Positions 19,499 to 49,581 of a DNA stretch of 64,000 nt are shown in pieces. The DNA comes from an uncultured Actinomycetota bacterium (GTDB taxonomy: Bacteria > Actinomycetota > Actinomycetes > Propionibacteriales > Nocardioidaceae). How positions within the stretch are numbered: position 1 is the stretch's first letter; every line of letters begins with the position of its first letter. A program made the translations under genes and the position numbers. The notes beneath the pieces were generated by a model. The model was not told the origin of the DNA, made no database searches, and was given only the letters and a program-made list of their open reading frames with translations. The stretch is taken from NCBI GenBank assembly GCA_963818365.1, contig CAWFRT010000005.1, positions 4,920 through 68,919 on the forward strand. Reading direction: 5' to 3'.

Positions 19499-19557
19499 TT
19501 CAATCGATTGGTTGACTAAAAGGGAACCCCGTGATTGTATTCAACTCATCAGTTGAA
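19499..19557. promoter_or_regulatory. Two probable ArsR operators
   Basis: TTCAACT-CATC-AGTTGAA (19540-19557) and the related TTCAATCGATTGGTTGAC (19499-19516). Confidence 0.6.
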
Positions 19558-19581
19558 CTCGCGGCTTCAGGAGGCGCACCC

Positions 19582-19956
19582 ATGGGCGATGATTCGCTTT
19601 CGCGGATGTTCTCAGCATTAGCCGACCCGACTCGTCGCGATCTGGTGGCGCGCCTCACCACCGGTGACGCAACGGTCAATGAATTGGCCGCGCCGTACGA
19701 CGTGTCGCTCCAGGCGGTGTCTAAGCACATCAAGGTGCTACAGGAGGCCGGACTCGTGACCCGCAGTCGCGACGCCCAACGTCGACCGGTGCACCTTGAG
19801 GCCGAGGTTCTGGATCTCATGACGGGCTGGATCGAGCGCTATCGCCGTAAGGCGGAGGCCCAATACCAGCGACTTGACGTGGTTCTTGCCGAAATGGCCA
19901 CAACGGAAAACAACGACTTCGACAGCACCACTACCCACCAAGGAGCAGCATCATGA
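19582..19956 (+). CDS. ArsR/SmtB-family regulator
   Basis: FSALADPTRR, SLQAVSKHIKVLQEAGLV. Confidence 0.93.
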   Translation: MGDDSLSRMFSALADPTRRDLVARLTTGDATVNELAAPYDVSLQAVSKHIKVLQEAGLVTRSRDAQRRPVHLEAEVLDLMTGWIERYRRKAEAQYQRLDVVLAEMATTENNDFDSTTTHQGAAS

Positions 19957-20450
19957 ACACCACTGCGAGCACGGCGACCTCACCTCACACTCAAATCATC
20001 GTCAACCCGACGCTGCCGACGGTGGAGATCATCCGGGAATTTGACGCAGCCCCCGAACTGGTCTTCAAGGCCCACCTCGACCCTGAGTTGGTCGTGCAGT
20101 GGATGGGGCCTGATGATCTCACCAACGAAATCGACTATTGGGACGCCCGAGACGGCGGCAGTTGGCGCTACGTCGCGCGCCGCGGCGACGAGGCCTATTG
20201 GTTTCGGGGCTGCTTCCACGAAATCCGACCCAACCAACGGATCGTGCAGACCTTCATGTTTGAGGGCTACCCGGACGGTGTGGCGTTGGAATTCCTCAAC
20301 CTCGAGGCTCTTGAGGGTGGCCGCTGTCGCCTCCGCGCTGTGTCCCTGACCGATAGTTTCGAAGGCCGGGACGCCTTCGTCGCTAGCGGCATGGAATCCG
20401 GCGTTATCGCTGGTTATCTCAAGTTGGACCGGGTGCTCGCGGAGGGCTGA
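19953..20450 (+). CDS. SRPBCC/AHSA1-family ligand-binding protein
   Basis: REFDAAPELVFKAH, WMGP, GGSWRY; typical ArsR partner, 4-bp overlap. Confidence 0.9.
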   Translation: MNTTASTATSPHTQIIVNPTLPTVEIIREFDAAPELVFKAHLDPELVVQWMGPDDLTNEIDYWDARDGGSWRYVARRGDEAYWFRGCFHEIRPNQRIVQTFMFEGYPDGVALEFLNLEALEGGRCRLRAVSLTDSFEGRDAFVASGMESGVIAGYLKLDRVLAEG

Positions 20451-20625: not shown

Positions 20626-21663
20626 ATGCTCTCTGCTGCAACCCCATCTGGCATCGATTCGATCGGCACCCCGTCGCTGTGGGCACTGATTATCGGCGCA
20701 GTTCTCGTGCTGCTCGCCGCAGACTTCGTCATCACGCGCAAACCCCACGAGGTCTCGATGGGCGAGGCCATCGGGTGGTCGGCGTTCTACGTCGCGCTCC
20801 CTCTTGCGTTTGGCGGCTACATCTGGCAGGTCTTCGGGGCCGAACGCGGTGTGGAATACCTCACGGGCTACGTCGTGGAGAAGTCGTTGAGTGTGGACAA
20901 CCTCTTTGTCTTCCTCCTCCTGCTCGGCGCCTTCGCCGTGCCACGTGAGCTGCAACAAAGGGTGCTGCTTTTCGGCATCATCGGTGCACTCGTGCTGAGG
21001 GGCATCTTCATCGCCCTAGGGGCGGCAGCCCTATCGGCGTTCGACTTTGTGTTCTTGATCTTTGGCGCAATCCTGATCGTCACCGGCCTCAAAATCCTCC
21101 GCGATGCGTGGCGGGGTCACGCACACGCCATTGACGTCGATTCGCTTCGCAGCGTCCGGCTGGTACGCCGGCTCATGCCGGTCACGGCTGACTATCGAGG
21201 CACGGCGTTGCTCACCCGCGTGGATGGACGCCGCGCGCTCACACCGCTGGCCTTGGTCGTGGTGGCGGTCCTCGCGACTGATGTTGTCTTCGCGGTGGAC
21301 TCGGTGCCTGCGGTCTATGGCATCACCGGTGATCCGTTCCTGGTTTTCGCCACTAACGCCTTTGCGCTGTTGGGCTTGCGGGCGTTGTACTTCGTGTTGG
21401 AGGGGGCGCTGAGCAAGTTGTCGCATCTCGGCTTTGGGTTGGCCGCGATCCTCGGGTTCATCGGCATCAAGCTGGGATTGCACTGGGGCCACCTGCAGTG
21501 GTCGAGCATCCCCGAGATCCCGACCGTCACCTCACTGTTGGTCATTGTTGGCATCTTGACCGTGACTGTCATGACCAGCCTGGTGGCCGACCGTCGGCGG
21601 ACTCGGCTAGAGGAGCGGGTGGGCGGAGACTTGAGCCCGTCGGAGGACCTCACGGGGCGTTAG
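20626..21663 (+). CDS. TerC/Alx-family membrane protein (Mn homeostasis)
   Basis: EKSLSVDNLF, DVVFAVDSVPA, TNAFALLGLRALYF. Confidence 0.93.
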   Translation: MLSAATPSGIDSIGTPSLWALIIGAVLVLLAADFVITRKPHEVSMGEAIGWSAFYVALPLAFGGYIWQVFGAERGVEYLTGYVVEKSLSVDNLFVFLLLLGAFAVPRELQQRVLLFGIIGALVLRGIFIALGAAALSAFDFVFLIFGAILIVTGLKILRDAWRGHAHAIDVDSLRSVRLVRRLMPVTADYRGTALLTRVDGRRALTPLALVVVAVLATDVVFAVDSVPAVYGITGDPFLVFATNAFALLGLRALYFVLEGALSKLSHLGFGLAAILGFIGIKLGLHWGHLQWSSIPEIPTVTSLLVIVGILTVTVMTSLVADRRRTRLEERVGGDLSPSEDLTGR

Positions 21664-22818
21664 TCCGAGCGCGGCTGCGGCTAGGACGATGTCGTCAAAC
21701 TCGGGCTCGGCGTTGACGACGCGCCCTTGGTGCCAGGCTCGCTTCACCCTGATTGGCTGAGCATCGACGTGGACCGTGACGATGTCTCTTGCGAGCACCG
21801 TCCGGTCGACTTGGTAGGTCCGTAGTCCGATGCTCGTGGTGGATTGAAAAACCAGATCCGTCAAACTGTCGATCCGCTCTGCGGGTGCGAGCACGTGAAG
21901 GGTGTGGGCCGGGCGACCCTTCTTCATCAGAATCGGAGTCAACCAGGCATCGGCTGCACCGGCGTCGAGCAGAGCCTGGATCGTGCCTGGCCAGAGGCGC
22001 GGGTCGAGGTCGTCGACGTTGGTTTCGAGGACGGTCATTGGGGCCAGGACGGTCACTGGCGCCTCGGCGGCCGCAGCGTCCCCAAGCGGTTCGCCGATCA
22101 CGAGTCGGCACACATTGGCGTGGCCCTCCGGGTCGGCACTGCCGGCGCCGATCCCGACGGTCGTGATGTCCATGGCCGGCATCGCGCCGAATCTTTCCGC
22201 CAACGTCACCAGCAGCGCCACGCCGGTGGGGGTGGCCAGCTCGATATCGACAGGCCCACCGCGGGCGGCCGCGCCCGAGGATCGCAATAGTTCGAGCACC
22301 GCCGGGCCAGGCACCCTCAGCAGGCCGTGTTGGGTTTGCACGCTGCCGCCACCGAGGGAGATGGGGCCGCCCACCACGCGGCGTACGCCCAAGTGCTCGA
22401 GTGCCACGAGGGTGCCGACAATGTCGGTCAGGCTGTCGAGGGCGCCGACCTCATGGAAGTGGACTAGGTGGGCGGCGATGCCATGGACTCGGCTCTCGGC
22501 GTCGGCCAGCAGTTGGAAGACCGCGATCGCCTGCGCAGTGACGGTTGTGGACAGGGCGGCGGCTTCGATTAGGTCGATGATCTCGCCCAATCGACGGGGC
22601 CGGCTGGAAGGCTGGGTTTCTACGAGCGCGTGAGTGGCGCGGAACTCGCCGCGGCGTACGTCGTCGGCAGTGACGGAAACCTGATCGCCCAGCCCGACGG
22701 CGTGCAGCGCGTCGATGACAACCGAGATCGGGGCGCCGGCATCGAGGCAGGCCCCAAGCAGCATGTCGCCGCTGACGCCACCGCGGGAGTCGATCCAGGC
22801 GACCAGTCCGTCAGCCAT
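21607..22818 (-). CDS. larC: LarC nickel-insertion protein (nickel-pincer cofactor)
   Basis: GVSGDMLLGA, HFHEVGALDS, ELATPTG, ETNVDD, MKKGRP, TTSIGLR, PEFDD. Confidence 0.93.
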   Translation of the reverse strand: MADGLVAWIDSRGGVSGDMLLGACLDAGAPISVVIDALHAVGLGDQVSVTADDVRRGEFRATHALVETQPSSRPRRLGEIIDLIEAAALSTTVTAQAIAVFQLLADAESRVHGIAAHLVHFHEVGALDSLTDIVGTLVALEHLGVRRVVGGPISLGGGSVQTQHGLLRVPGPAVLELLRSSGAAARGGPVDIELATPTGVALLVTLAERFGAMPAMDITTVGIGAGSADPEGHANVCRLVIGEPLGDAAAAEAPVTVLAPMTVLETNVDDLDPRLWPGTIQALLDAGAADAWLTPILMKKGRPAHTLHVLAPAERIDSLTDLVFQSTTSIGLRTYQVDRTVLARDIVTVHVDAQPIRVKRAWHQGRVVNAEPEFDDIVLAAAALGLTPREVLRRAQVSAHPLL

Positions 22819-23647
22819 GGGCGCGGCTTGCGCTGGCTTGATTCATCGACCCCGAGCGGAAACCCATCGGGTCTACTTCGACCCGATCAAAGCCCAAGAT
22901 GGTCGCGGTGATGGCCGGAAAGGCAGCCAGGGCTGGCACCAGGGCTAGGTCAATCTCGACCTTGGCCACCGCGCCGAGGTCGCGGACGCGGAGGTTGCGC
23001 ACCGGCAAACCTGCCGCCAGACAGGCCTGTCGTAGGTCGTGTTCGGCGCGTTCGACCCGGCCGAGTCGGGCGGGGGTGATGGTTAGGCCATAGGCAATTC
23101 GGCTCGAAAGACAAGCGGCGGCCGGTTTGTCGGCCGTGGTCAGCCCCCAATCCCGGGAGGCCTCGCGGACCTGCGCCTTGGTGAGCCCAGCGTCGCGAAG
23201 TGGCGTGATTGCCCCGCGCTGGGCGGCCGCCCTGATCCCTGGCCGAAATGGATCAACGGCGTCGTCGGCGTTCGTTCCGGTCGCGACTGCGTTGAGATTG
23301 AGCTGGGCGGCGAGCGGAGCGAGGATGTCGAGGAGCTCGGCCTTGCAGTGAAAGCATCGGTCGGGGCCGTTGGCGCGATAGCCCTCGCGTGACATTTCGT
23401 GCGTGGCCGGGGTCAGGTGACGCACACCGAGGCTGGCGGCGTACTTCGTGGCGTCAGCCAGCTCGGTGGCCGGGAGCGAGGAACTGACTGCAGTCGCCGC
23501 GACGACGAGGTCTGGGCCGAGGGCGCGGACGGCGGCGGCCAGGAGAAAGGCAGAATCTGCGCCGCCCGAGAATGCGATCAGGAGTGATCCGGACGCCCGG
23601 AGCCCCACGTCGAGCGTCGCCAACTGGTCGTGCAGAGCGGTCTTCAC
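22811..23647 (-). CDS. larE: LarE ATP-dependent sulfur transferase
   Basis: AFSGGADS PP-loop, RCFHCK, GTNADD, RPG, ACLSSR; GTGA overlap with larB. Confidence 0.92.
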   Translation of the reverse strand: MKTALHDQLATLDVGLRASGSLLIAFSGGADSAFLLAAAVRALGPDLVVAATAVSSSLPATELADATKYAASLGVRHLTPATHEMSREGYRANGPDRCFHCKAELLDILAPLAAQLNLNAVATGTNADDAVDPFRPGIRAAAQRGAITPLRDAGLTKAQVREASRDWGLTTADKPAAACLSSRIAYGLTITPARLGRVERAEHDLRQACLAAGLPVRNLRVRDLGAVAKVEIDLALVPALAAFPAITATILGFDRVEVDPMGFRSGSMNQASASRAHG

Positions 23648-24303
23648 GAAGCGTCCCGAGCATGCTTCAAGATGCGGATGGCCGCACACGCGGCGCCAAA
23701 GCCGTTGTCGATCCCGACCACGGTGATGCCCGGGCTGCAGGACGCGAGCATGCCAAGAAGTGCGGTGATTCCCTCAAGCCCAGAGCCATAACCCGTGCTG
23801 GTCGGGACCGCGATGATGGGCGCGCGGGTGAGGCCGGCAACCACGCTGGCGAGGGCTCCCTCCATGCCAGCCAGCACGATCACTACCTCGGCGGCGTCGA
23901 GGTGTGCTTGATGGGACAAGACTCGGTGGAGGCCTGCCACGCCAACATCAGCGATCAGTTCGGTGGCGAAGCCATAGGCCGCGAGGACGGCTTGAGTCTC
24001 GTGGGCAATCGGCAGATCAGCGGTGCCTGCGGTCAGCAGGGTGACATTGCCAGCTTGGCTGGCGGCTGGTCGCCAAGTCAGTGTCGCGAGCGAGCCGCCG
24101 ATGATGGTCGAGCCAGGGTTGATCGCCTGGGCGGCTTTGGATTGAGGCTCATCGGCCCGGGTGAGGAGGACCGGACCCGTGGTTTGTGCGAGTAACCCGC
24201 TGACCGCGGCGGCGCATTGTTCCGGAGTCTTGCCGGGAGCATAAACCGCCTCGGCAAGGTTCGTTCGTCCCTCGCGGGTCGGATCGAGGTGCAACTCGGG
24301 CAT
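23644..24303 (-). CDS. larB: LarB (PurE-like carboxylase/hydrolase)
   Basis: EAVYAPGKT, TAGTADLP, DVGVAGLHR, AGMEGAL, PTSTGYG, NGFGAA. Confidence 0.93.
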   Translation of the reverse strand: MPELHLDPTREGRTNLAEAVYAPGKTPEQCAAAVSGLLAQTTGPVLLTRADEPQSKAAQAINPGSTIIGGSLATLTWRPAASQAGNVTLLTAGTADLPIAHETQAVLAAYGFATELIADVGVAGLHRVLSHQAHLDAAEVVIVLAGMEGALASVVAGLTRAPIIAVPTSTGYGSGLEGITALLGMLASCSPGITVVGIDNGFGAACAAIRILKHARDAS

Positions 24304-24347
24304 GAGCCCATGGTGCCCTAGATCGATCGGCACGGGCCGGGCGAGCC

Positions 24348-24842
24348 TCACTGATCCGCGTCTAGTCGGACACAGTCGCCACACCGGCGTTCATGTCGCG
24401 CCGTCACCTGACAACACGTCGTACGCCGAAAAGTGGGGCCGAGCTCGCCAGTCCACGCGTCTGCCAAAGGTCTGCTCAGGAGCGCGTTGGTCGCGACGGC
24501 GAAGATGCGCGCGGTGTGTTCTGGGACTTCTTGGGCGAGGATCCCAGCACTCGAGGCGATCACCGAGGCCAGGTTTCCCCACAGAATTGGCTGCGTTAGG
24601 GTCCCGCGACTGGCTGTGGTCACGAGGTCGGTGAGCGGCCCGGAGACAGCCTTTTCGAGGGCCAGCGGATCTCCTGTTATGGCCGCTCGCAGAGCAGGCA
24701 GCACGATGGTGCCGGCTGCTTGGAGCGTGACGAGTGATTCGGCTGCCCCCTGTTTGATGTCGTCCACCGGCGTGTCGGTGAGCTGAGCGAGGGCGATGCG
24801 CTTGCGCGCGGCGCTGGCCAGGAAGGTCGCCAGATCGCTCAA
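24348..24842 (-). CDS. FhuF-like (2Fe-2S)-binding protein
   Basis: C-terminal RRTTCC-x10-CGDC motif. Confidence 0.72.
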   Translation of the reverse strand: MSDLATFLASAARKRIALAQLTDTPVDDIKQGAAESLVTLQAAGTIVLPALRAAITGDPLALEKAVSGPLTDLVTTASRGTLTQPILWGNLASVIASSAGILAQEVPEHTARIFAVATNALLSRPLADAWTGELGPTFRRTTCCQVTARHERRCGDCVRLDADQ

Positions 24843-25675
24843 GCCAGGATGTCCTGGAGATTGTGGGGAGTTTCTGCGCGGGCGAACGCGCGGCGGACAA
24901 GTTCACCGAAGACCAGCCCGAGGATCAGCCAGGTGATCAGGTGCAGTCCCAGCGAATACAGGCGGAAGTCGTAAAGGAGATCTGCCGGGAACCCGGGAAA
25001 GACGATGGTGCCCGCGTCGTCGGTCAGCGGAAGCGGGGTCTCGGTGGTTCTTGTGAGGCCGCTCATTGAGCCCGTGGTGGGGAAGAGGACCAACATTGCC
25101 GTCGCGCCTGCGAACCAAGTGGCCGCGCCGGCGAGGAGGCCGTTCGGCGTGGTGGATCGCTGCATCATTCGTCGGGCCACCCACACTGCGACCACCATCA
25201 GGGCCACCGAGGCAATGACGAGCAGCAAGTAGTAGCCACCTCGTGGTCGTGCGGTTTCGTCGAGCGAGACCGCTGGCGGATTGGCTGGGTATTTCAAGAA
25301 CGGCAGCAGATTTATCGCCACGAAGCCGGCGAGGGCAAGCAGGAACGCCAGGGCTTGGGGCGACACCTTCTCGAAGCGGCCAAGGCAGCCGGCATACACC
25401 ACTGAGAAGACTGCCCCCAGCGCGACGGCGTACCCAATGACGCCGACGGCGAGTCCCCAACCCGCTTGAGTGGCGCGACTGACGACAGCTTCTTCGCCGT
25501 GGGAATGGCCAGACTCTTGGGCGTGGGCCAGGGCGCTTTCGGCCGCAGCCCGGCCGGACTCAAAGTTGATGGCCTGGCCGATCAGTGGCTCGCCAACGAA
25601 GCGGGCATAACCGAAAGCAATCAGGCCAGCGACGAGGCCGGCCGCGAGACCATTGAGGACGAGGCGGCGTTCCAT
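24839..25675 (-). CDS. cbtA: CbtA putative cobalt transporter subunit
   Basis: GEPLIGQAINFE, HSH, LKYPANPPAV, DLLYDFRLYS. Confidence 0.9.
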   Translation of the reverse strand: MERRLVLNGLAAGLVAGLIAFGYARFVGEPLIGQAINFESGRAAAESALAHAQESGHSHGEEAVVSRATQAGWGLAVGVIGYAVALGAVFSVVYAGCLGRFEKVSPQALAFLLALAGFVAINLLPFLKYPANPPAVSLDETARPRGGYYLLLVIASVALMVVAVWVARRMMQRSTTPNGLLAGAATWFAGATAMLVLFPTTGSMSGLTRTTETPLPLTDDAGTIVFPGFPADLLYDFRLYSLGLHLITWLILGLVFGELVRRAFARAETPHNLQDILA

Positions 25676-25699
25676 TGGGCTATCCCCAGTGGTGGATGC

Positions 25700-25936
25700 T
25701 CAGTGACACGGGAAACCGAGGCTGTGGCGAGCGTCATGGAAGAGTTCGTGCAGCAGCAGCCCGTCACCGGTCACCGAGACGGAGCCCTGGTCGATACCAA
25801 GGAAGTAGATCGCGGCGATGCCCATCAAGAGCGCTCCCATGAACCACAGGCCGGTGATGGTGAGTGAGATCGGGCGGGCGCCGGCCCTGACGTTGAGTGG
25901 GCTGCTGGCTGCGGCTGACGGAGAGCTGGGGGGCAC
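25700..25936 (-). CDS. cbtB: CbtB putative cobalt transporter subunit
   Basis: One TM followed by HELFHDARHSLGFPCH. Confidence 0.92.
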   Translation of the reverse strand: MPPSSPSAAASSPLNVRAGARPISLTITGLWFMGALLMGIAAIYFLGIDQGSVSVTGDGLLLHELFHDARHSLGFPCH

Positions 25937-25976
25937 GTTTCACTCCTTCGAGGCGTAAGTATTATGAGAAACGTAC

Positions 25977-25992
25977 CTCTCCTATAGTAGAT
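25977..25992. promoter_or_regulatory. Candidate operator, copy 1 (cbtB/osmC-like divergence)
   Basis: CTCTCCTATAGTAGAT, 11/16 to GTTTACTATAGTAAAC. Confidence 0.45.
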
Positions 25993-26016
25993 TCGTCCAG
26001 AGCGGAGGAGGGGCTT

Positions 26017-26421
26017 GTGTCCGAACGAGTTGTCAGTGCGACGTGGTCGCCGGGACCGCTGAACACCACCGTGGAATTCGACACGCGGCAGACGATGCTT
26101 GTTGACGAGCCAGTCTCTGTGGGTGGGACGGGAATGGGCCCGCAGCCAACGGATCTCTTCATCGCATCGGTGGCGTCGTGCTTCACGTTGGCCTTGGTGT
26201 ACGCCGCGGGGAAGGCAGGCTTGTCGCTGACCTCAGTGGAGGTCGTGGTGACCGGCACCTATGCCGGACCACGTTTCTCCGAGATTGCCATCCATGCCGA
26301 GCTGGGCGGCGTACCCACTAGCGAGCGGGACGCCTTGGTCGCCTCCGCCGAGCGCTATTGCTATGTGACCAACACCCTCCGTCGCCCCCCAACGGTCACC
26401 ACCACCTCCACCTCCCGCTGA
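26017..26421 (+). CDS. OsmC-like family protein
   Basis: VDEPVSVGGTGMGPQPTDLFIASVASCF, ERYCYVTNTL. Confidence 0.85.
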   Translation: MSERVVSATWSPGPLNTTVEFDTRQTMLVDEPVSVGGTGMGPQPTDLFIASVASCFTLALVYAAGKAGLSLTSVEVVVTGTYAGPRFSEIAIHAELGGVPTSERDALVASAERYCYVTNTLRRPPTVTTTSTSR

Positions 26422-26513
26422 GGAGTCACGCAGATCCGGCGAGGCGTCACGTAAACCCGGCGAGGAGTCACGCAGATCCGGCGAGGCGTCACGTAAACCC
26501 GGCGAGCCGTCAC
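26420..26513 (+). repeat. 21-bp periodic array (ABAB plus half unit)
   Basis: GAGGAGTCACGCAGATCCGGC alternating with GAGGCGTCACGTAAACCCGGC. Confidence 0.9.
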
Positions 26514-26727
26514 CGTCGGATCGGCCGGCATGCCTGAACTGCTCAATGTCTGCTGATGTCGGGCCGCCAGACTTCCTTTAGCGCGAGCCAATCAACTGAC
26601 ATGGGCCATCCGCTGGTAGTCCGGATCGGGGTTTGTTGCAGGGAGGCCGGCTCGGCTGCAACAAGTCTGCAACGGCGCCGAGTTGGATGAATTCATCTCG
26701 GCTCCCCATCCCCCATGGAGGCGCACC

Positions 26728-27179
26728 ATGAGCAAAGTCGTTGTTGATACCGCAATTAGTGACGCCTCGTTGGGTTTACGTGACTCCTCGCCGGGTCTGC
26801 GTGAGCCTCGGCGGGTTTGCGTGACGCCTCGCCGGATCTGCGTGACGCCTCGCCGGGTGAGGCGTTGGCGAGCGTGCACTACTTGGCGGAGCGGCCATGC
26901 CGCTGTCGGTTCGCGCGGGATACGCAGGTGCACCACGATCAGTTGCTGCGCATCGCCAGCGATGGCGACGCCTTCTTCGAGTTGATGGAGTTGGCGGTCA
27001 CCTGGGGCGAGTTGGACTACTCCGAAATGCCGGTGATTCCGCCCAATCGGTGGCTTGAGTTCGTCGACTCCCACATGTGGGCCGATGGCGAGAAGGCCGA
27101 ACGAATGCTCGCCCTTGCCACCGATGTCGCGCTGGGTTCGGCACGCGCAACGGCTCGCCTGGAGCGGTCCGGCAGCTGA
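26728..27179 (+). CDS. Hypothetical protein with the repeat array in its 5' region; probably frameshifted, or starting near 26928
   Basis: GGAGG RBS and ATG at 26728; protein-like C-terminus (VHYLAERPCRC...LAVTWGELDYS) is in the -1 frame. Confidence 0.5.
26759..26856 (-). repeat. 21-bp periodic array, inverted relative to 26420-26513
   Basis: Five GTGAC(T/G)CCTC-type cores at 21-bp spacing; one unit (GTGAGCCTC) is 1 bp short. Confidence 0.88.
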
Positions 27180-27195: not shown

Positions 27196-28179
27196 TCAAA
27201 CTAAGCCGGTGACCGTCTCCCGGTTGAGATCCAGCACCTCAACGCAATGACCCGCCGAAGCAAGGCCGATCAATCCCGAATCATCAACAACGCCGATCAC
27301 CTCGGCAGTGAGGTCACGCTGGTGGAACGCCTCGCGACAAGCGTCAACCTGTTCAACCGGGGTCGTCAGCAAGAACGCGTAGTTGGGGAAACAGGTCAGC
27401 CAGCGCGTCAACTCGACCCCATCCGGCACCGGCAAGGCGTCGAGGTCGACCCGGCAGCCATAGCGCCCGTGCTCCAAGAGCATCGCCAGGGAGCCCACGA
27501 GGCCGGCCATGCTGACGTCTTTGGCCGCCACCGCGGACCCCGACTCGGCGACCTCGGCCAACAATCGGATATCACCCGCGGCCTGCTCGGCGCGCTGGCG
27601 GAACCCCGCAAAGAACGGAAAGTCCGGCCGCATTTCGCCGACCAGCGAGCACGCCAAGATGACCGCGTGACCGGGCCGAACGTGAGTCATCGACAAGACC
27701 GCCTCCGCCCGGCCGAGCCCAAAGGCAGACAACGCAGGTGGACCGTCGGAGCGAGTCAGGTGCCCGCCGAGCAGCGGCACGTCATACAACTCGCAGCCGT
27801 AGCGAATTCCCCGCAAGATCTCACGGGCAGTCGTCTCGTTAGCCACGATGGTGTTCACGATGCCGGTCGGCCGCGCGCCCATCGCGGCCAGGTCGTTGAC
27901 GTTGGTCAGCACGGCCGCGATGCCGGCCCCGAACGGGTCGTGGGCGACAAAAGACGGCAACAGGGCCTCCCCGCAGGCCACCACAAACGAGTCATCAAAA
28001 GCAATTGCGGCACCGTCATCGCCGGGTCCGGTCAGCCAGTCGGATTTGTCGAAAACCTCCGAGACCAGGCCGATCGCCTGCTTGTCGCGGAGGCCGGCGT
28101 ACGCCGTCACGGTGGCAACTAGTTCGGTCAGTTGTGCGGCGCTGAGCCCGGGCCTCGAGGTGGTTCGGTCGCGTTGCAT
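27196..28179 (-). CDS. AIR synthase/selenophosphate synthetase-like protein (Sll0787/MSMEG_0567/NitF type); start uncertain
   Basis: GDDGAAI, TNVNDLAAMG, GGHL, KDVSMAG. Confidence 0.85.
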   Translation of the reverse strand: MQRDRTTSRPGLSAAQLTELVATVTAYAGLRDKQAIGLVSEVFDKSDWLTGPGDDGAAIAFDDSFVVACGEALLPSFVAHDPFGAGIAAVLTNVNDLAAMGARPTGIVNTIVANETTAREILRGIRYGCELYDVPLLGGHLTRSDGPPALSAFGLGRAEAVLSMTHVRPGHAVILACSLVGEMRPDFPFFAGFRQRAEQAAGDIRLLAEVAESGSAVAAKDVSMAGLVGSLAMLLEHGRYGCRVDLDALPVPDGVELTRWLTCFPNYAFLLTTPVEQVDACREAFHQRDLTAEVIGVVDDSGLIGLASAGHCVEVLDLNRETVTGLV

Positions 28180-28188
28180 ATAGGAAAC
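28173..28188. promoter_or_regulatory. Candidate operator, copy 2 (AIR synthase-like/comA divergence)
   Basis: GTTGCATATAGGAAAC, 12/16 to consensus. Confidence 0.5.
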
Positions 28189-28209
28189 GATAGATTTAGG
28201 ATCCGACAC

Positions 28210-28998
28210 ATGACAAGGCCAGGCTTCCTGTCACTCCCTGAGCGCGCTGAGAAGCCGCGTACGTCGGGTCTGACGCACGTCCTTGACAAGGGGCTCTCCG
28301 TCTCTGCCACCAGCGAATTGCTCCGGTCAGCGGGCAACTTTATTGACGTCTGGAAGTGGGGCTGGGGCACGGCTTACCTCGACCCCGACGTCCCTGTGAA
28401 ACTCAAGATGCTCGAAGGGGCGGGCATCAGCGCCTGCCTCGGCGGCACCATGCTGGAGATCTCGTGGCTGCAAGGCAAACACAAAGAGTGCCTGGACTGG
28501 GCGGCCGAGCTGGGTTTCCCGATGATCGAGGTGTCACGCGGAGTTGCGCCGATGACACTGGTGGAGAAGCGCGAACTGATTGAGTACGCCGTCTCGCACT
28601 TCACGGTGTTCAGCGAGGTCGGCAGCAAGGATCCGGCTTTCGACGTGGACCCGCAGGCATGGCGTGCGGAAGTCGTGTCTGACCTGGCAGCCGGCGCCTC
28701 GATGGTGGTCGCCGAGGGCCGCGAGAGTGGCACGGTGGGGCTGTATGACCCCGCGGGTGCGATTCGGCCGGACGTGGTGGAGGCAATCGCCGCGGTCGCG
28801 GGTCCGGATCGGATCTTCTTCGAGGCTCCGAAGAAGGACCAGCAGGCATGGTTCATTCGACACTTTGGGCCGAGCGTCAACCTGGCCAACATCGCCGCTG
28901 GCGAAGTGATGGGGCTGGAAGCCCTGCGCCTCGGCTTGCGTGCCGACACGGTCGCCCTAACCGGGGAAGGCGGGGCGCCAGGAGTTGGGGTGACATGA
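28210..28998 (+). CDS. comA: Phosphosulfolactate synthase (ComA family)
   Basis: GLTHVLDKG, DVWKWGWGT, LGGTMLE, IEVSRG, SEVGSKD, EGRESG, FEAP, LEALRLGLRADT. Confidence 0.93.
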   Translation: MTRPGFLSLPERAEKPRTSGLTHVLDKGLSVSATSELLRSAGNFIDVWKWGWGTAYLDPDVPVKLKMLEGAGISACLGGTMLEISWLQGKHKECLDWAAELGFPMIEVSRGVAPMTLVEKRELIEYAVSHFTVFSEVGSKDPAFDVDPQAWRAEVVSDLAAGASMVVAEGRESGTVGLYDPAGAIRPDVVEAIAAVAGPDRIFFEAPKKDQQAWFIRHFGPSVNLANIAAGEVMGLEALRLGLRADTVALTGEGGAPGVGVT

Positions 28999-29990
28999 GT
29001 GTGAACATCTATCCCGACAAATACCGCGGGGTTTCAGTGACCACTGTGGGCGGGGCCCTCGATCTTGAGTCCTTGCGGGCGTACTTCGTGGGAAAGCAGG
29101 CCTACTTCAAGACGAGGTACGCCGTCGTCAGCGGCACGGAAGGCGGTGTGCCTGCCACCGCCATCGTCCGCATTCACACCGCGGCGACCCCTTCAACTGG
29201 CGCCGTTCGGGGCGGACTATCTGGGGAGGGGGAGGGAGAAGGGGAGCTGTTTCTCCCGATCCTCGACGTCACCATGCTGGCTACCGCCGACGAAACGGTG
29301 GTCGTGGACGACCCCGAGATTGACACCGGTGTGCCCTCGGAGTTGGCCAGAGCCGCCCGTGAGCGAGCGCCGGGCTCTCGCGCGGTCGTCGTACACGGGC
29401 GCTATGAACACATCAGTTTCATCATCGACGCTCAACCCCTTCAAGTGCTCGTGCGCGAGGTGATTCCACCCGAACCCGCGAAACTCGTCGATCAGGCGGC
29501 CCGGGTCTTGGCCGTGCGCGAGGACTTGCCACCGATAGAGCTGATCCCCGATGTGGTGGATCTCCGCGAGGTGGCCGCGGCCCATCCAGCAGCGCACTAC
29601 CTCCTGCCTTGTCGAGGGTCGGGTTTCGTTCCTCAACAGTCCGAGCAGGGTGCCGCAGGCAACATCAAGATTGAATTCTTGGATGAACACCCAGCAGAAG
29701 GCGACTGGCTGATGCTGGGCTGCACGCGCTCGCAGCAGATCCACGGCGCGTTCTATGACCGCGATGCCCCCCAAGTGAGTTTCTGCCCCCTTGAACGGCC
29801 AGCCTCCCCCCTGTTGACGCTCACCAAATGTTGCCTCCAAGACGACGACATCGTGCGGGGAGACCACTCCGTGTCGGTGCCCTGGGGATCGTCGCTCGAG
29901 CGGGTGAGCGAGGCGCTCGAGGCGTTGGTGGCGCTGGCCAAAGATCAAGCCAGCACCGACCAACGGGTTCGCGCAGCGGAGGCGCTCTAG
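28995..29990 (+). CDS. Hypothetical Cys-containing protein translationally coupled to comA
   Basis: ATGA overlap; LLPCRGSG, LGCTRSQQIH, FCP, TKCCL. Confidence 0.75.
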   Translation: MSVNIYPDKYRGVSVTTVGGALDLESLRAYFVGKQAYFKTRYAVVSGTEGGVPATAIVRIHTAATPSTGAVRGGLSGEGEGEGELFLPILDVTMLATADETVVVDDPEIDTGVPSELARAARERAPGSRAVVVHGRYEHISFIIDAQPLQVLVREVIPPEPAKLVDQAARVLAVREDLPPIELIPDVVDLREVAAAHPAAHYLLPCRGSGFVPQQSEQGAAGNIKIEFLDEHPAEGDWLMLGCTRSQQIHGAFYDRDAPQVSFCPLERPASPLLTLTKCCLQDDDIVRGDHSVSVPWGSSLERVSEALEALVALAKDQASTDQRVRAAEAL

Positions 29991-37241: not shown

Positions 37242-37868
37242 CTAGCTGAGGCTGATGTGGACGAGCTCGGCCACTGCGCGCCCGGAATTGGTCCAGGTGG
37301 CGGAGTGATCAGTGAGGAAATGCAGTGAATCGCCACGCTTAAGAGCGAAGTCACGGCCGCCGATTGTGGCGTGCACCGCTCCGGCAACCACGTGCACCAA
37401 CGACTCACCACCACGTGCGGGCGCATCCTCCAACACGGCGCCAGCGGGCAACTTGATCGTCGTACCTCTGGCGCGGAACCGAGCCGGTGGTCCGGAGATG
37501 AGTACGACGTCGGCGCCGCCACGATCCACCGGCTCGCCGGTGCCAGACGCCACATGCCAGACGTCATGGGGATCCTCGGGCTCTTCGCCAATGAGGTGGC
37601 TGATCGGACGCTTGAAGACGGTGGCCAGTTTGAGCAGAGTCGTGATCGTCGGCACCATGTCGCCGCGCTCGATCTTGTGGATCGAAGCGGCGCTCACTTC
37701 GGCAATCGCACTCATCTGTTGGAGCGACAACCCCAAGCCGGCCCGCATGTCGGCCAGCCGCGGACCAATCCCGGCTACGACCTCCTCAACGCTCAGGGCG
37801 CCCGTGTCAGTCGCGTTTTCCGGCGTGACTGAAGTGCTGGCGGCGTTTGCAGCACTGCCTCTAGGCAT
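37242..37868 (-). CDS. XRE-family HTH regulator with C-terminal cupin domain
   Basis: LSLQQMSAIAEVSAASIHKIERG...PTITTL; GGESLVHVVAG, GDSLHF. Confidence 0.92.
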   Translation of the reverse strand: MPRGSAANAASTSVTPENATDTGALSVEEVVAGIGPRLADMRAGLGLSLQQMSAIAEVSAASIHKIERGDMVPTITTLLKLATVFKRPISHLIGEEPEDPHDVWHVASGTGEPVDRGGADVVLISGPPARFRARGTTIKLPAGAVLEDAPARGGESLVHVVAGAVHATIGGRDFALKRGDSLHFLTDHSATWTNSGRAVAELVHISLS

Positions 37869-37882
37869 TTGCCTGTCCTCTC

Positions 37883-37914
37883 TTGACGTCCCACTCGCGT
37901 TTACTATGATAGAC
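37883..37914 (+). promoter_or_regulatory. Promoter (TTGACG-16-TATGAT) overlapped by candidate operator copy 3
   Basis: GTTTACTATGATAGAC at 37899-37914, 13/16 to consensus. Confidence 0.6.
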
Positions 37915-37984
37915 GACAACCTCACATAATGGACACGCCATCGCTGACGTGTTCGCCGGTCTCGTCAGGAGTGTCCATCAAGTT

Positions 37985-47552: not shown

Positions 47553-47588
47553 TTGGACAATACGACGTTGACGTTTACTATAGTAAAC
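47553..47588 (+). promoter_or_regulatory. Promoter (TTGGAC-17-TACTAT) with perfect 16-bp operator palindrome, copy 4; probably a leaderless mRNA
   Basis: GTTTACTATAGTAAAC at 47573-47588, immediately before ATG 47589. Confidence 0.7.
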
Positions 47589-47966
47589 ATGACGGAAGAA
47601 GCGGTGCAAGCAACAGACGCCCCCGCACCCATCGATCCACGTCGTATCGCCGAGACGCTCAAAGTGGCGCGTTGGCGCGAAGCCGAGGACCGGGTCTACC
47701 CCCTGGTGATGGTGGATCCCGCGCTTTATCAGGCGGCGGTGGCAGCCGTCGCAAAAATTTGTGAAGTGGTTCGAGAACGAGGTCTTTCGCGCGCTGAGTT
47801 GCTGGCACTGAACAGCCACGAAGTTGCCGCCAGCGTCTTAGTTGACCCCGAGCTCTATCAGCAGGTGACCGGGCTCAACGGCTCGGCTGGTTTGTCTGCT
47901 GCCACCCTCGTCGAGGCTGCCCTCGCCCAAGTCGCGTCCTTCACACCCTCAGGAGATACCCCATGA
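47589..47966 (+). CDS. Hypothetical protein heading the radical SAM operon
   Basis: RWREAEDRVYPLVMVDPALY; ATGA overlap with the radical SAM gene. Confidence 0.7.
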   Translation: MTEEAVQATDAPAPIDPRRIAETLKVARWREAEDRVYPLVMVDPALYQAAVAAVAKICEVVRERGLSRAELLALNSHEVAASVLVDPELYQQVTGLNGSAGLSAATLVEAALAQVASFTPSGDTP

Positions 47967-49108
47967 GCCAGCAGGTCTCTGACGTCATTCCCACCACGCT
48001 GGGCGAGTTGATCGCCGACCTGCAAGCAGTGGGCATGCGGACTCGGAGTGAGGTCGAGCGTCGAGTTGGTGGGGCCGGACCTACTGATGTCGGGATGTTT
48101 TGGGTCGAGGGGATTGGCGTCACGATTCCCACCACGAGCAACGAGGCCAAGCACTCGCCGTACTCCTTGGAGGTCGAAGACGAGGGTACGGCGATCTATC
48201 GCGACGGTGTTCGGCTGGCCTCGGCGCACGGCGAGCGGCGGCCCAAGTTTTATGACCTGGAAACTGCCGACGGGGTTCCCTACTGGCAGATCGCACTCCT
48301 CCATCTCGACTCGTTGGCCAGCACCGTCGTCCAGCACTGTTCCTACTGGGGGAACGCCGATCAGTGCGGCTTCTGCGGGATCGGCCTGTCGCTGGATTCG
48401 GGGCGGACGATCGTCAAGAAGTCGCCAGCTCAGTTGGCCGAGGTTGCGGTCGCCGCGCGTGACCTGGATGGTGCCGTGGATGCGACGCTCACGACCGGGT
48501 CATCGAATGGCCGCGATCGTGGGGCGTTGTACGTCGCGAAGTGTGGGCAGGCGGTCAAGGAGGCCGCTGGTTTGCCGGTCGAGGTGCAGTTTGAGCCGCC
48601 GTTCGACCTCGACGTGATTAACCAGGTCGGCGGCATGGGGATCGACTCGGTCGGCATCCACATCGAAACTTTTGATCCTGCGGTGTTGGCGCGGGTGGCT
48701 CCTGGGAAGTTCCGGACCGGCATGGAGCGCTACTTCGAGGCGTGGGAGCGGGCGGTGTCAGTCTTCGGCTCGGGCCAGGTGTCGACGTACGTCATTCTGG
48801 GGATGGGTGAGGACCCTGAACTCACTATCGAAGGCTGCAAGCGAGCCGTCGACATCGGCGTCTATCCCTTCATCGTGCCGATCCGGCCGGTGGTCGGGAG
48901 CCTGCTCGAAGACATCGTCCCGCCGACCTCGGACTACACCGAACCGATCTATCGCAAGGTCGCGACCTACATGGCTGAGCGCGGCATGGACGCTTCGCAG
49001 GTCTCGGCTGGGTGCGCGCGTTGCCAGGCGTGTTCGGCGATCAACTCGATGAAGACGGACACGCCTTTGGTGTTGCTTGGCCCAACCCGGACGGCTGAGA
49101 GCGCCTGA
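47963..49108 (+). CDS. MSMEG_0568-family (NitD-type) radical SAM protein
   Basis: IALLHLDSLASTV, CSYWGNADQCGFC (Cx8Cx2C), TLTTG, GIHIE, STYVILGMGE, C-terminal GCARCQACS. Confidence 0.92.
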   Translation: MSQQVSDVIPTTLGELIADLQAVGMRTRSEVERRVGGAGPTDVGMFWVEGIGVTIPTTSNEAKHSPYSLEVEDEGTAIYRDGVRLASAHGERRPKFYDLETADGVPYWQIALLHLDSLASTVVQHCSYWGNADQCGFCGIGLSLDSGRTIVKKSPAQLAEVAVAARDLDGAVDATLTTGSSNGRDRGALYVAKCGQAVKEAAGLPVEVQFEPPFDLDVINQVGGMGIDSVGIHIETFDPAVLARVAPGKFRTGMERYFEAWERAVSVFGSGQVSTYVILGMGEDPELTIEGCKRAVDIGVYPFIVPIRPVVGSLLEDIVPPTSDYTEPIYRKVATYMAERGMDASQVSAGCARCQACSAINSMKTDTPLVLLGPTRTAESA

Positions 49109-49581
49109 TGAATGCGTCGAGTTCGGCAGCGGCGGCACCCGAGGTGTCGTGTCGAGCAGCGTCGACCTTGGCTGAACTCCAGGCGCATCGGGCGGTTCGC
49201 CATGCCGTGTTTGTCGTCGAGCAAGAGATCTTTGCAGGCGACGACATCGACGAACACGACGATGATCCACGCACGGTGCACGTCGTCGGCATGATTGGCG
49301 ACCAACCTGGCGGCGCAGTGCGGCTCTATCCCCTCGATGACGAGGGCGCACGTTGGCAGGGCGACCGACTCGCCGTACTCCCTGAGTTTCGGGCAGCTGG
49401 CCTCGGTGGACCACTGGTGAAGTACGCCGTTGCGACGGCGGCTGCTGCCGGTGGGACTCACATGGTTGCCCACATCCAGACCCCCAACGTGCGGTTCTTC
49501 GAATACCTCGGCTGGGAGGCCGACGGGGAGCAGGAAATCTACGTCGGTCGAACCCATCAGCCGATGATCATCCGCTGGTAG
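49108..49581 (+). CDS. MSMEG_0567/Sll0786-type (NitE) GNAT acetyltransferase
   Basis: RHAVFVVEQ, GAVRLYP, WQGDRLAV, AHIQTPNVRFFEYLGW. Confidence 0.9.
   Translation: MNASSSAAAAPEVSCRAASTLAELQAHRAVRHAVFVVEQEIFAGDDIDEHDDDPRTVHVVGMIGDQPGGAVRLYPLDDEGARWQGDRLAVLPEFRAAGLGGPLVKYAVATAAAAGGTHMVAHIQTPNVRFFEYLGWEADGEQEIYVGRTHQPMIIRW

Follow-up and report, generated by a model that had tools for sequence, protein, structure and literature searches.

[quoted passage not shown] The reading favoured here, to which we give a probability of about 0.6, is that in this soil actinobacterium a CbtAB importer, normally B12-switched and cobalt-related, was recruited to larBEC, and that the client of the cofactor is not a recognised enzyme and is perhaps encoded in the adjacent supercluster.

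The original prediction of a same-strand run cbtB-cbtA-FeS-larB-larE-larC was confirmed in gene content and order by family models and coordinates (Table 1; the gene for the Fe-S protein is here called X). The six genes occupy 25936-21607 on the minus strand and overlap or sit tightly packed, with no terminator or promoter found inside the run. X starts with TTG and shares 4 nt with the end of cbtA, larB and larE overlap in GTGA, and larE and larC share 8 nt, the larC ATG being inside the end of larE; relatives show the same overlaps. The cbtB gene begins with GTG at 25936, preceded by the Shine-Dalgarno sequence GAAGGAG, and its product ends in HELFHDARHSLGFPCH. The true start of larB is probably 24333 or 24303, and that of larE the GTG at 23647, within the overlap with the larB stop. 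A whole-genome profile search found the lar and cbt genes of this locus to be the sole copies, and comparison with relatives gave dN/dS values of 0.14-0.47 across all six genes (0.14-0.40 for cbtA).

Table 1. Features of the operon and its surroundings (positions in the window).
Feature	Position	Strand	Evidence and remarks
larC	21607..22818	-	PF01969, 400.7 bits; predicted CTP-dependent nickel insertase, LarC1 and LarC2 fused
larE	22811..23689	-	TIGR00268, 264 bits (cut-off 150); predicted ATP-dependent sulfur insertase
larB	23644..24384	-	NF033503 equivalog, 230 bits (cut-off 175); predicted NaAD carboxylase/hydrolase
X	24348..24842	-	164 aa, truncated FhuF-like, predicted [2Fe-2S]; profile homology via intermediates
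cbtA	24839..25675	-	PF09490, 218.7 bits; membrane subunit of CbtAB importer
cbtB	25700..25936	-	PF09489, 44.5 bits; small subunit of CbtAB-type Ni/Co importer
OsmC-like gene	25897..26421	+	PF02566, 67.5 bits; divergent from cbtB
38-nt conserved block	25963..26000		CTGGACGAATCTACTATAGGAGAGGTACGTTTCTCATA (minus-strand reading); between divergent cbtB and OsmC
Conserved protein of ~100-110 aa	26817..27179	+	HYL..RPCRCRF..HHD..LMELAVTWGELDYSE..NRWLEFV; four orthologues aligned
sll0787-family AIR-synthase-like gene	27196..28209	-	TIGR04049, 251.7 bits, under cut-off (321)
Second palindrome copy	47574..47587		TTTACTATAGTAAA; divergent region between a carbamate-kinase gene and a hypothetical/radical-SAM/GNAT operon

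By family and residue criteria, larB, larE and larC form a complete NPN biosynthesis set, and their products look active. LarB, by family a PurE-like carboxylase/hydrolase, reaches its equivalog cut-off. In an alignment with LarE of Lactiplantibacillus plantarum (5UDQ), the PP-loop motif SGGADS is present, CFHC replaces WYYA and a third cysteine falls one residue after the position of Cys176; because this cysteine pattern matches the CXXC-C pattern described for LarE of T. maritima (PMC9283937), LarE is assigned from its sequence to the [4Fe-4S] CXXC-C class. LarC aligns over its full length with Moorella LarC (12BI, 231.8 bits), the LarC1 and LarC2 models both score above cut-off, and the equivalents of Moorella E104, H108, H116, H118 and H160, without which activity is lowered or lost, are all kept. 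The remark that LarC lacks a His-rich stretch was correct as far as a poly-His run is concerned, but the functionally essential histidines are retained. In the proposed pathway LarB would carboxylate and cleave NaAD, LarE of the [4Fe-4S] type would insert two sulfurs catalytically, and LarC would insert nickel with CTP.

That the lar genes are instead a decaying remnant without current function, or that LarC inserts cobalt and so makes a cobalt pincer, is very improbable. Such a view could draw on the replacement of Moorella H70 and H72 by P and R, on the cobalt ancestry of the transporter and on the LarC of a relative (the MAG G201), which is spread over three frames. Yet the G201 breaks look like assembly indels, since neighbouring genes are broken too, and the lar reading frames are intact in the source genome and in L037, L038, L039 and L059, with dN/dS of 0.16-0.34. 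The retained residues listed above also speak against it, no sequence feature speaks for cobalt insertion, and the suggestion that the pincer carries a different metal found no support.

The lar operon of L. plantarum (larA, larB, larC1/C2, larD and larE, with larQO/MN) combines the same three cofactor-building enzymes with a dedicated importer, larQO/MN being the lar-associated nickel transporter. The present operon differs in having no larA, a CbtAB-family importer where L. plantarum has an ECF transporter, a LarE that is predicted to be catalytic ([4Fe-4S], CXXC-C) rather than a sacrificial single-Cys enzyme, and a LarC that is a single fused protein with no poly-His region.

The origin of the importer can be traced by comparison. 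The family models recognise both CbtB and CbtA (Table 1); the two proteins score far under the cut-offs of the stricter models TIGR02458 and TIGR02459. CbtA groups closely with 12 other sequence clusters (64-78% identity), beyond which no match exceeds 54%; it is 43-49% identical to CbtA of sister loci in other Actinobacteria. In the nearest outgroup loci (four loci, in Dactylosporangium, Kribbella, Actinacidiphila and Jatrophihabitans) a cobalamin/AdoCbl riboswitch lies directly upstream of cbtB, followed by cbtB-cbtA and then usually a full-length FhuF-like gene. No such riboswitch was found in six loci of the cbtBA-X-larBEC clade (the window and five relatives). In the 64-kb window a scan at gathering thresholds returned only a tRNA and a permissive scan of 25500-26700, ahead of cbtB, nothing relevant, as originally predicted, while the same method detects the single B12 riboswitch of the genome elsewhere (C3:978403-978551), preceding an ECF-type transporter operon. 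The family models are those of the B12-riboswitch-controlled cbtAB, a cobalt transporter according to comparative genomics (Rodionov/Zhang; PMC2667541); here there is no riboswitch, no corrin-pathway marker (CbiC/CobH was not found in the genome), and the operon runs on into larBEC. The claim that CbtAB has been repurposed therefore holds as regards its removal from the usual B12 context.

Comparison of clade and outgroup loci shows a loss of the riboswitch, a usual shortening of X and the gain of larBEC. The ancestors of this CbtAB are B12-regulated, which points to cobalt. By this comparison the operon descends from the cobalt-uptake unit of Actinobacteria, in which a B12 riboswitch precedes cbtB and cbtA and a gene for a FhuF-like [2Fe-2S] protein usually comes third. 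In the clade the riboswitch was lost and a conserved promoter/operator block acquired, the FhuF-like protein usually lost its N-terminal half, and the cbtBA-X unit was joined to larB-larE-larC. In its present form CbtAB would import Ni(II) and, very probably, Co(II) as before.

The third gene, X, carries the motifs WGNxAS and, C-terminally, FRRTTCCQ-x7-CGDC (CC-x9-C-x2-C), and its four cysteines are invariant in 10 aligned sequences. It has no Pfam match of its own even at E=5 and no NCBIfam match, and only 3 matches to X were found among 5.8 billion proteins. A profile search reaches proteins of 220-310 aa with PF11575 (FhuF_C) and weak PF06276, and in Kribbella, Actinacidiphila, Jatrophihabitans and L039 the gene after cbtA encodes a full-length homologue. 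X thus resembles the FhuF ferric-siderophore reductase family (PF06276, PF11575) in its C-terminal CC-xn-C-x2-C, but it is half the length (164 aa against about 230-260), has a 9-residue spacer, matches no Pfam model alone and stands in a context of Ni/Co uptake, not siderophore use. AF2 predicts a bundle of five helices for X (pLDDT 87), and no matching fold was found in the PDB. X probably binds a [2Fe-2S] cluster, and would act as a redox or Fe-S accessory of CbtAB. The 2Fe-2S protein of the original prediction is accordingly present as a Cys-rich third gene, but it is not lar-specific: by comparison of gene order it is an ancestral third gene of the cbtBA operons of Actinobacteria, with translational coupling. 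To our knowledge CbtAB systems have not previously been reported to include a FhuF-like third gene.

In place of the riboswitch, the region between cbtB and the OsmC-like gene, which likely starts at a GTG near 26021-26024 after GGAGGAGG, holds a 38-nt block that hardly varies among six loci, although protein identity between these loci is no more than 55-80%. Inside it, at 25978-25991, is the palindrome TCTCCTATAGTAGA, which contains overlapping TACTAT and TATAGT, both -10-like hexamers, and may be nothing more than two -10 elements that overlap. A shared form, TACTATAG(G/T)A, marks the cbtB promoter and one other promoter of the same supercluster, where TTTACTATAGTAAA lies 1 nt upstream of an ATG; this second site is kept at the homologous position in G201. 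TACTATAG occurs in only 4 places in the genome, the other two being in identical repeated sequence on C3. The shared palindrome claimed ahead of cbtB is therefore real and has one other copy, but it is short; that it is a copy of the long palindromes of 42-63 nt in the window was ruled out by comparison.

At least 8 contigs or genomes carry the block cbtBA-X-larBEC (L001, L002, L033/G201, L037, L038, L039 and L058/59; LarC 58-63% identical), and cbtB orthologues with 62-75% identity take the same position in L001, L033, L037, L038, L039 and L058/59. It always adjoins the OsmC-like gene, the ~110-aa protein, the AIR-synthase-like gene and a bacterial coenzyme-M operon. The AIR-synthase-like gene joins the block throughout to this operon, which starts at 28132 and continues with ComA, XcbA-family, Lyase_1, PALP, ASL and AllG; this flank is constant across loci, while the opposite one differs in L039. 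The ~110-aa protein, with no Pfam or NCBIfam match and a poor AF2 model (pLDDT 55), accompanies cbtBA-X-larBEC in every locus where it was seen, with no homologue in ten lar-less supercluster loci, in which the OsmC-like gene ends the coenzyme-M operon instead. Among 400 other Nocardioidaceae genomes, 13 have the supercluster without an adjacent lar operon; 11 of these have lar genes elsewhere, and in the remaining two (G032, 86% complete; G018, 69% complete) neither LarB nor LarC was found. As the background frequency of LarB is 62%, the association of supercluster and lar genes is no significant enrichment, and the link is suggestive only.

The supercluster also bears on which metal is imported. 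The genome encodes urease and Ni-SOD, and the organism thus uses nickel, while no NiCoT-family (NicO) transporter was found in it. Because a nitrile hydratase (NHase) of the cobalt type shares the supercluster here and in G201, cobalt supply for this enzyme has to be considered beside nickel supply for LarC. In its full form, a possible though less probable alternative, CbtAB-X would still be a cobalt importer for NHase, the lar genes would merely share its transcript, nickel would come from another source and the cofactor client would lie elsewhere in the genome. The motif VCTLCSCY in the alpha subunit of the NHase is of the Co type; the NHase lies inside the cluster in the source genome and G201, was not found in three genomes lacking lar and cbt, and is far from the cluster in a fourth; and sister cbtBA operons are under B12-riboswitch control, a cobalt signature (PMC2667541). 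A client elsewhere is possible because the nearest lar operons beyond the clade (L041) serve LarA-like enzymes. Against this, the transporter is translationally chained to larBEC, whereas the NHase operon is 14 kb away, and the genome shows no other lar-linked nickel importer. A lar-linked nickel transporter also has a precedent in larQO/MN, and the nickel and cobalt readings are compatible with each other. Recruitment of CbtAB to larBEC is retained as the preferred reading.

As to the client, a LarA-family racemase is absent from the window, as had been noted, and the genome-wide search then proposed likewise found none (PF09861, or NF033504 at E<=1); PF09861 has no match in G201 either, and no DUF362 relatives of LarA were found in the genome. 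A full larB-larE-larC set without LarA in the genome is likewise seen in clusters of an NPAD-dependent ornithine cyclodeaminase (OCD), reportedly described by Desguin in 2025 as a non-LarA client. The same holds for clusters of NphT (AKR fold, PDB 9YEB; PMC13524815). Sets of this kind were the material mined in both studies. In contrast to both, neither an AKR nor an OCD gene stands within 20 genes of larC here, the paralogues elsewhere look canonical, and no candidate client was found.

A client of known type could still have been missed, in the unassembled 1% of the genome, through divergence too great for the HMMs, or as an AKR or OCD paralogue using NPMN or NPAD. The 6-contig assembly, the presence of seven AKR and two OCD-family genes, and the existence of NPAD-dependent OCDs and NPMN-dependent AKRs (PMC13524815) leave some room for this, but it is unlikely. 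Lar_N is absent from two clade genomes (the source and G201), as noted for DUF362 in the source. The seven AKR genes are all on contigs other than that of the lar operon, and by inspection, at positions inferred from the description in the paper and not from an alignment to 9YEB, none is NphT-like: in place of His144 and Lys200 of NphT they carry S-N/E/S and (Y/W/F)-S/T/F-P/A-L, and the dinucleotide-binding segment at the C-terminus is retained in every one. The two OCD-family genes are unlinked to lar, and OCD1 matches the NAD-bound P. putida enzyme (1X7D) at 8e-124 and neighbours a LysR regulator and a putA-like gene. With no LarA, no DUF362-type relative and no NphT-like AKR, the cofactor would therefore have to serve an unrecognised apo-enzyme.

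The original prediction placed this enzyme in the locus itself. Conserved synteny and the shared promoter palindrome point that way and suggest a client in the adjacent supercluster, while supercluster versions without an adjacent lar operon, and the two incomplete genomes without any lar genes, point against it. LarA-less larBCE sets are common, as 75 of the 124 LarB-positive Nocardioidaceae are without Lar_N, and already constitute a published open problem; in the organism studied here, an unrecognised apo-enzyme of the supercluster (coenzyme-M synthesis, Nit1C-like genes, cobalt nitrile hydratase) may be the client, and is put forward as a lead.

The six-gene run from cbtB to larC put forward in the original prediction is borne out on the minus strand by the ORF listing and by HMM scans. 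The stop of cbtA and the TTG start of the third gene (X, a truncated FhuF-like Cys protein) overlap by 4 nt, the larB stop and the likely larE start coincide in GTGA, and larE overlaps larC by 8 nt at the larC ATG. As these junctions (X/cbtA, larE/larB, larC/larE) overlap, they indicate that cbtB-cbtA-X-larB-larE-larC would be read as one operon. Neither terminator-like nor promoter-like sites were found inside the run, a GAAGGAG Shine-Dalgarno sequence precedes the GTG of cbtB, and all six genes are single-copy in the genome.

Genes of the cbt-lar operon, with positions in the window and the family models that they match
Gene	Position	Strand	Family match or description
cbtB	25936..25700	minus	PF09489
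cbtA	25675..24839	minus	PF09490, 218.7 bits
X	24842..24348	minus	164 aa, no family match of its own
larB	24384..23644	minus	NF033503, 230 bits (cut-off 175)
larE	23689..22811	minus	TIGR00268, 264 bits (cut-off 150)
larC	22818..21607	minus	PF01969, 400.7 bits; LarC1 and LarC2 models both match

When aligned to L. plantarum LarE (5UDQ), the window LarE keeps the SGGADS PP-loop, CFHC replaces the WYYA of the Lactiplantibacillus enzyme and a third cysteine lies one residue past the Cys176 position. It shares this CXXC-C pattern, the one-residue shift included, with Thermotoga LarE, a catalytic enzyme that depends on a [4Fe-4S] cluster (PMC9283937). LarC and the cryo-EM chain of Moorella LarC (12BI) align along their whole length at an offset of 18 residues, and the window protein retains the equivalents of E104, H108, H116, H118 and H160, which are catalytic or nearly indispensable (PMC13510736), with P and R in place of Moorella H70 and H72. 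The original prediction correctly described LarC as being without a His-rich stretch, which is no argument against its function, as the His cluster of the Moorella protein is also small. Pairwise Nei-Gojobori dN/dS among four orthologous operons is 0.14-0.47 for all six genes, X being the least constrained, although these ratios are rough because dS is ~1-1.7.

The absence of a LarA-family racemase, predicted for the window, extends to the whole assembly (3.4 Mb in six contigs, 98.98% complete, with the window on contig 5). The genome-wide HMM check found no homologue with PF09861 or with NF033504 at E<=1, controls responding in both searches; DUF362, a distant LarA-like fold, was not found in the genome, nor was LarA found in G201, the genome that carries the related locus L033. 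The predicted lack of a cobalamin riboswitch ahead of cbtB likewise held in Rfam scans at gathering and permissive settings, which return only a tRNA for the window and nothing relevant for the cbtB leader. As both the LarA and the riboswitch scans came back empty, these absences are real as far as the searches reach. The sole cobalamin riboswitch of the genome sits elsewhere, ahead of an ECF-type transporter operon (C3:972442-978551, on another contig), where it is followed by genes for two large secreted or surface proteins, an EcfT-like protein, duplicated ATPases and an S-like membrane component; this operon probably serves corrinoid uptake in a genome that lacks CbiC.

A LarA-less larBCE set is in itself not unusual. 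Prokaryotes that make the cofactor but have no LarA number in the hundreds (PMC13524815), and in the 201 Nocardioidaceae genomes sampled LarB is above cut-off in 124, Lar_N in 55 and LarB without LarA in 75. The LarB-positive genomes without Lar_N (75 of 124) belong to the family sample G001-G200. The lar locus typical of the family (loci L013-L032) consists of larB-larC, a gene for a 200-aa UPF0016/GDT1-like membrane protein and an arginine-deiminase-like gene, beside pheA and serS, with no cbtA and with larE not adjacent; its arginine-deiminase-like neighbour recalls the ornithine cyclodeaminase client. What is new here is the fusion of larBEC to a CbtAB unit stripped of its riboswitch, the recognition of the third gene as FhuF-like, and the operon's association with a supercluster of coenzyme-M (CoM) synthesis, Nit1C-like and nitrile hydratase (NHase) genes.

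The nearest homologues of LarC and CbtA occur in the same arrangement, in the compared loci L001, L002, L033, L037, L038, L039 and L058/L059 (called with a simple GC3-based caller and checked by tblastn), whose genomes are kin and whose counts are not independent. The gene order of this clade is a coenzyme-M operon, an AIR-synthase-like gene of the sll0787 family (AIRS-like), an unknown gene of ~110 aa, an OsmC-like gene and, divergently, cbtB-cbtA-X-larB-larE-larC; in L039 the flank past larC differs and the AIRS/CoM side is unchanged. LarC identity within the clade is only 58-63%, and the arrangement has therefore outlasted considerable divergence. CbtA identity drops abruptly, from 64-78% in the clade to 54% or less in a sister clade, where cbtB-cbtA stand alone in Dactylosporangium and precede a full-length homologue of X in Kribbella, Actinacidiphila and Jatrophihabitans, with translational coupling in Kribbella and Actinacidiphila. 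All four sister loci carry a cobalamin/AdoCbl riboswitch immediately upstream of cbtB, three above the gathering score and the fourth at 43.7 bits (E=6e-7). The ancestral unit would thus have comprised a B12 riboswitch, cbtB, cbtA and usually an FhuF-like gene, from which the window clade may have arisen by loss of the riboswitch, shortening of X in most members and gain of larBEC downstream. The X homologue of L039 is still 246 aa long. Outside the clade, the most closely related lar operons also run larB-larE-larC, and there a LarA-like gene is their neighbour in an operon of lipid type (L041).

A word search of 5.8 billion proteins retrieves only two other relatives of X, and X used as an anchor in species genomes only one true relative. 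Against 1.84 billion representatives, a profile search finds 252 matches, the closest few short and the remainder of 220-310 aa; several of these longer homologues match PF11575, the 2Fe-2S domain at the C-terminus of FhuF, and have a weak match to PF06276 as well. All aligned homologues share a WGNxAS motif and four cysteines (CC...CxxC). The AlphaFold model of X (pLDDT 87) shows five bundled helices and a disordered Cys tail, and a fold search of this model against the PDB gave nothing significant. Given the remote homology to FhuF_C-bearing proteins, it is a reasonable inference that X is a 2Fe-2S protein, as a distant relative and not a demonstrated member of the family. A full-length FhuF-like CC...CxxC gene stands third after cbtB-cbtA in L034 (Jatrophihabitans), L055 (Kribbella), L056 (Actinacidiphila) and also L039; its overlap with cbtA is 4 nt in L055 and L056, and in L056 a NicO (NiCoT) gene comes after it. 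This suggests that the FhuF-like protein is an iron-sulfur component of actinobacterial CbtAB cobalt uptake, a third component of CbtAB systems that, to our knowledge, has not been described.

The original prediction had CbtAB repurposed to supply cobalt to NHase and/or nickel to LarC. Repurposing agrees with the loss of the riboswitch relative to the sister loci and with the corrin marker CbiC/CobH, which was not found in the genome, so that B12 synthesis is not what cobalt would serve; as to the metal, nickel and cobalt each keep support. LarC lies on the predicted CbtAB transcript, urease and Ni-SOD are encoded elsewhere in the genome, and no NiCoT gene was found there. On the cobalt side, the NHase 14 kb away carries the Co-type VCTLCSCY motif and lies inside the cluster both here and in G201, whereas in cluster genomes without lar and cbt NHase was not found in three and is far from the cluster in the fourth. 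As NHase sits in the cluster together with cbt and not in the cbt-less versions examined, comparison genuinely backs the cobalt reading. By its structure the operon speaks for nickel as the presumptive substrate of CbtAB, and the most economical view is that CbtAB serves both metals. Beyond TerC, at 19531-20450 of the window, lie paired genes for an ArsR/SmtB-type metalloregulator (19531-19956; NF033788, 73 bits) and an AHSA1/SRPBCC protein, a pair that adjoins the lar operon in L033, L037, L038 and L058/59 and not in L039; the regulator is a possible candidate for the metal sensor of the cbt-lar operon. The window also encodes an HTH-cupin regulator, at 37925..37242.

A 38-nt block between cbtB and the OsmC-like gene is almost invariant in six loci and holds the palindrome TCTCCTATAGTAGA. 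Outside a repeated element, the genome has further TACTATAG-type sites only in the divergent promoter of the carbamate-kinase/radical-SAM operons of the same supercluster, and this second site is also kept in G201. The long palindromes of the window have no copy ahead of cbtB. A hairpin sequestering the Shine-Dalgarno sequence (10-bp stem, 25932-25941/25968-25977) was rejected as a riboregulator, its 3' arm not being conserved in five orthologous leaders. At 47574-47591 the perfect palindrome TTTACTATAGTAAA, with a -10-like TATAGT, ends 1 nt before the first ATG of the hyp/radical-SAM/GNAT operon, which suggests a leaderless transcript. Between the OsmC-like gene and the ~110-aa gene, a 21-nt tandem repeat (unit GAGGCGTCACGCAAACCCGGC) forms two arrays of ~4.5 copies each (26420-26513 and 26759-26858), inverted around a 245-nt spacer. 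The second array overlaps with the N-terminus annotated for the ~110-aa ORF, and in the L001 orthologue of this ORF the repeat recurs at the peptide level; a small mobile element or a set of iteron-like binding sites could account for the arrays.

Who uses the nickel-pincer cofactor in the many LarA-less makers was partly answered in 2025-2026 by AKR and OCD clients. NPMN-dependent AKRs with a His144/Lys200 motif were established by the NphT study of 2026 (PMC13524815), which also cites NPAD-dependent ornithine cyclodeaminases. The genome encodes seven AKR and two OCD-family proteins, all on contigs other than that of the window. On inspection, none of the AKRs departs from the canonical S-N/E/S and aromatic-S/T/F-P/A-L segments, and all have the C-terminal dinucleotide-binding segment, the NphT positions being mapped by inference from the published description and not by alignment. 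The first OCD matches the NAD-containing Pseudomonas putida enzyme (8e-124) and lies beside a LysR regulator and a putA-like gene, and the second resembles pyrroline-2-carboxylate reductase and alanine dehydrogenase types.

The further proposal that the client is encoded in this locus is met by mixed evidence. The neighbourhood is constant across the clade, the promoter palindrome is common to the operon and the supercluster, and the ~110-aa protein (its AF2 model too poor to use) is encountered only where the cbt-lar operon is present. However, of 400 other Nocardioidaceae genomes, 13 carry the AIRS-like/CoM supercluster (54-58% identity), lar is adjacent to it in none of the ten loci examined there, and LarB or LarC is found elsewhere in 11 of the 13, with neither in G032 (86% complete) or G018 (69% complete). 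Since the LarB background of the family is already 62%, from which 11 of 13 is indistinguishable, this phylogenetic profile demonstrates no dependence between supercluster and lar genes. We put the chance that the client belongs to the supercluster at roughly one in three. Candidate proteins there are the ~110-aa, OsmC-like and AIRS-like proteins, XcbA-E, a CoADR-like and an Sll0783-like protein, and the AllG/H/FdrA set. Among individual candidates, the DUF7714 protein (28848-29990), considered as an unknown Cys-rich client, belongs to the XcbA family (NCBIfam NF052538, 254.6 bits against a cut-off of 150), the known [2Fe-2S] sulfoethanethioaldehyde reductase of bacterial CoM synthesis. A 160-aa ORF (27074..26592) is an antisense artefact of a conserved gene on the plus strand. 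The lar operon does not replace the radical-SAM/GNAT genes of lar-less clusters, which are present in the window at 47963-49581.

Our boldest reading, to which we give about one chance in five, is that the operon would feed nickel and the pincer cofactor to a supercluster enzyme that is not a LarA, AKR or OCD, and that the riboswitch-less unit of CbtAB and the FhuF-like protein would be the first member dedicated to nickel in a family whose members have until now been taken for cobalt transporters. If this is true, nickel-pincer chemistry would gain one more protein scaffold in this client. The locus presents a case, shared by at least eight related lineages, that appears to fit no known client family of the three, and it records clearly how, in evolution, a cobalt-uptake unit under B12 control was rewired and fused to nickel-cofactor synthesis. 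It also narrows the search space for a client to one conserved supercluster, that which holds the bacterial coenzyme-M pathway.
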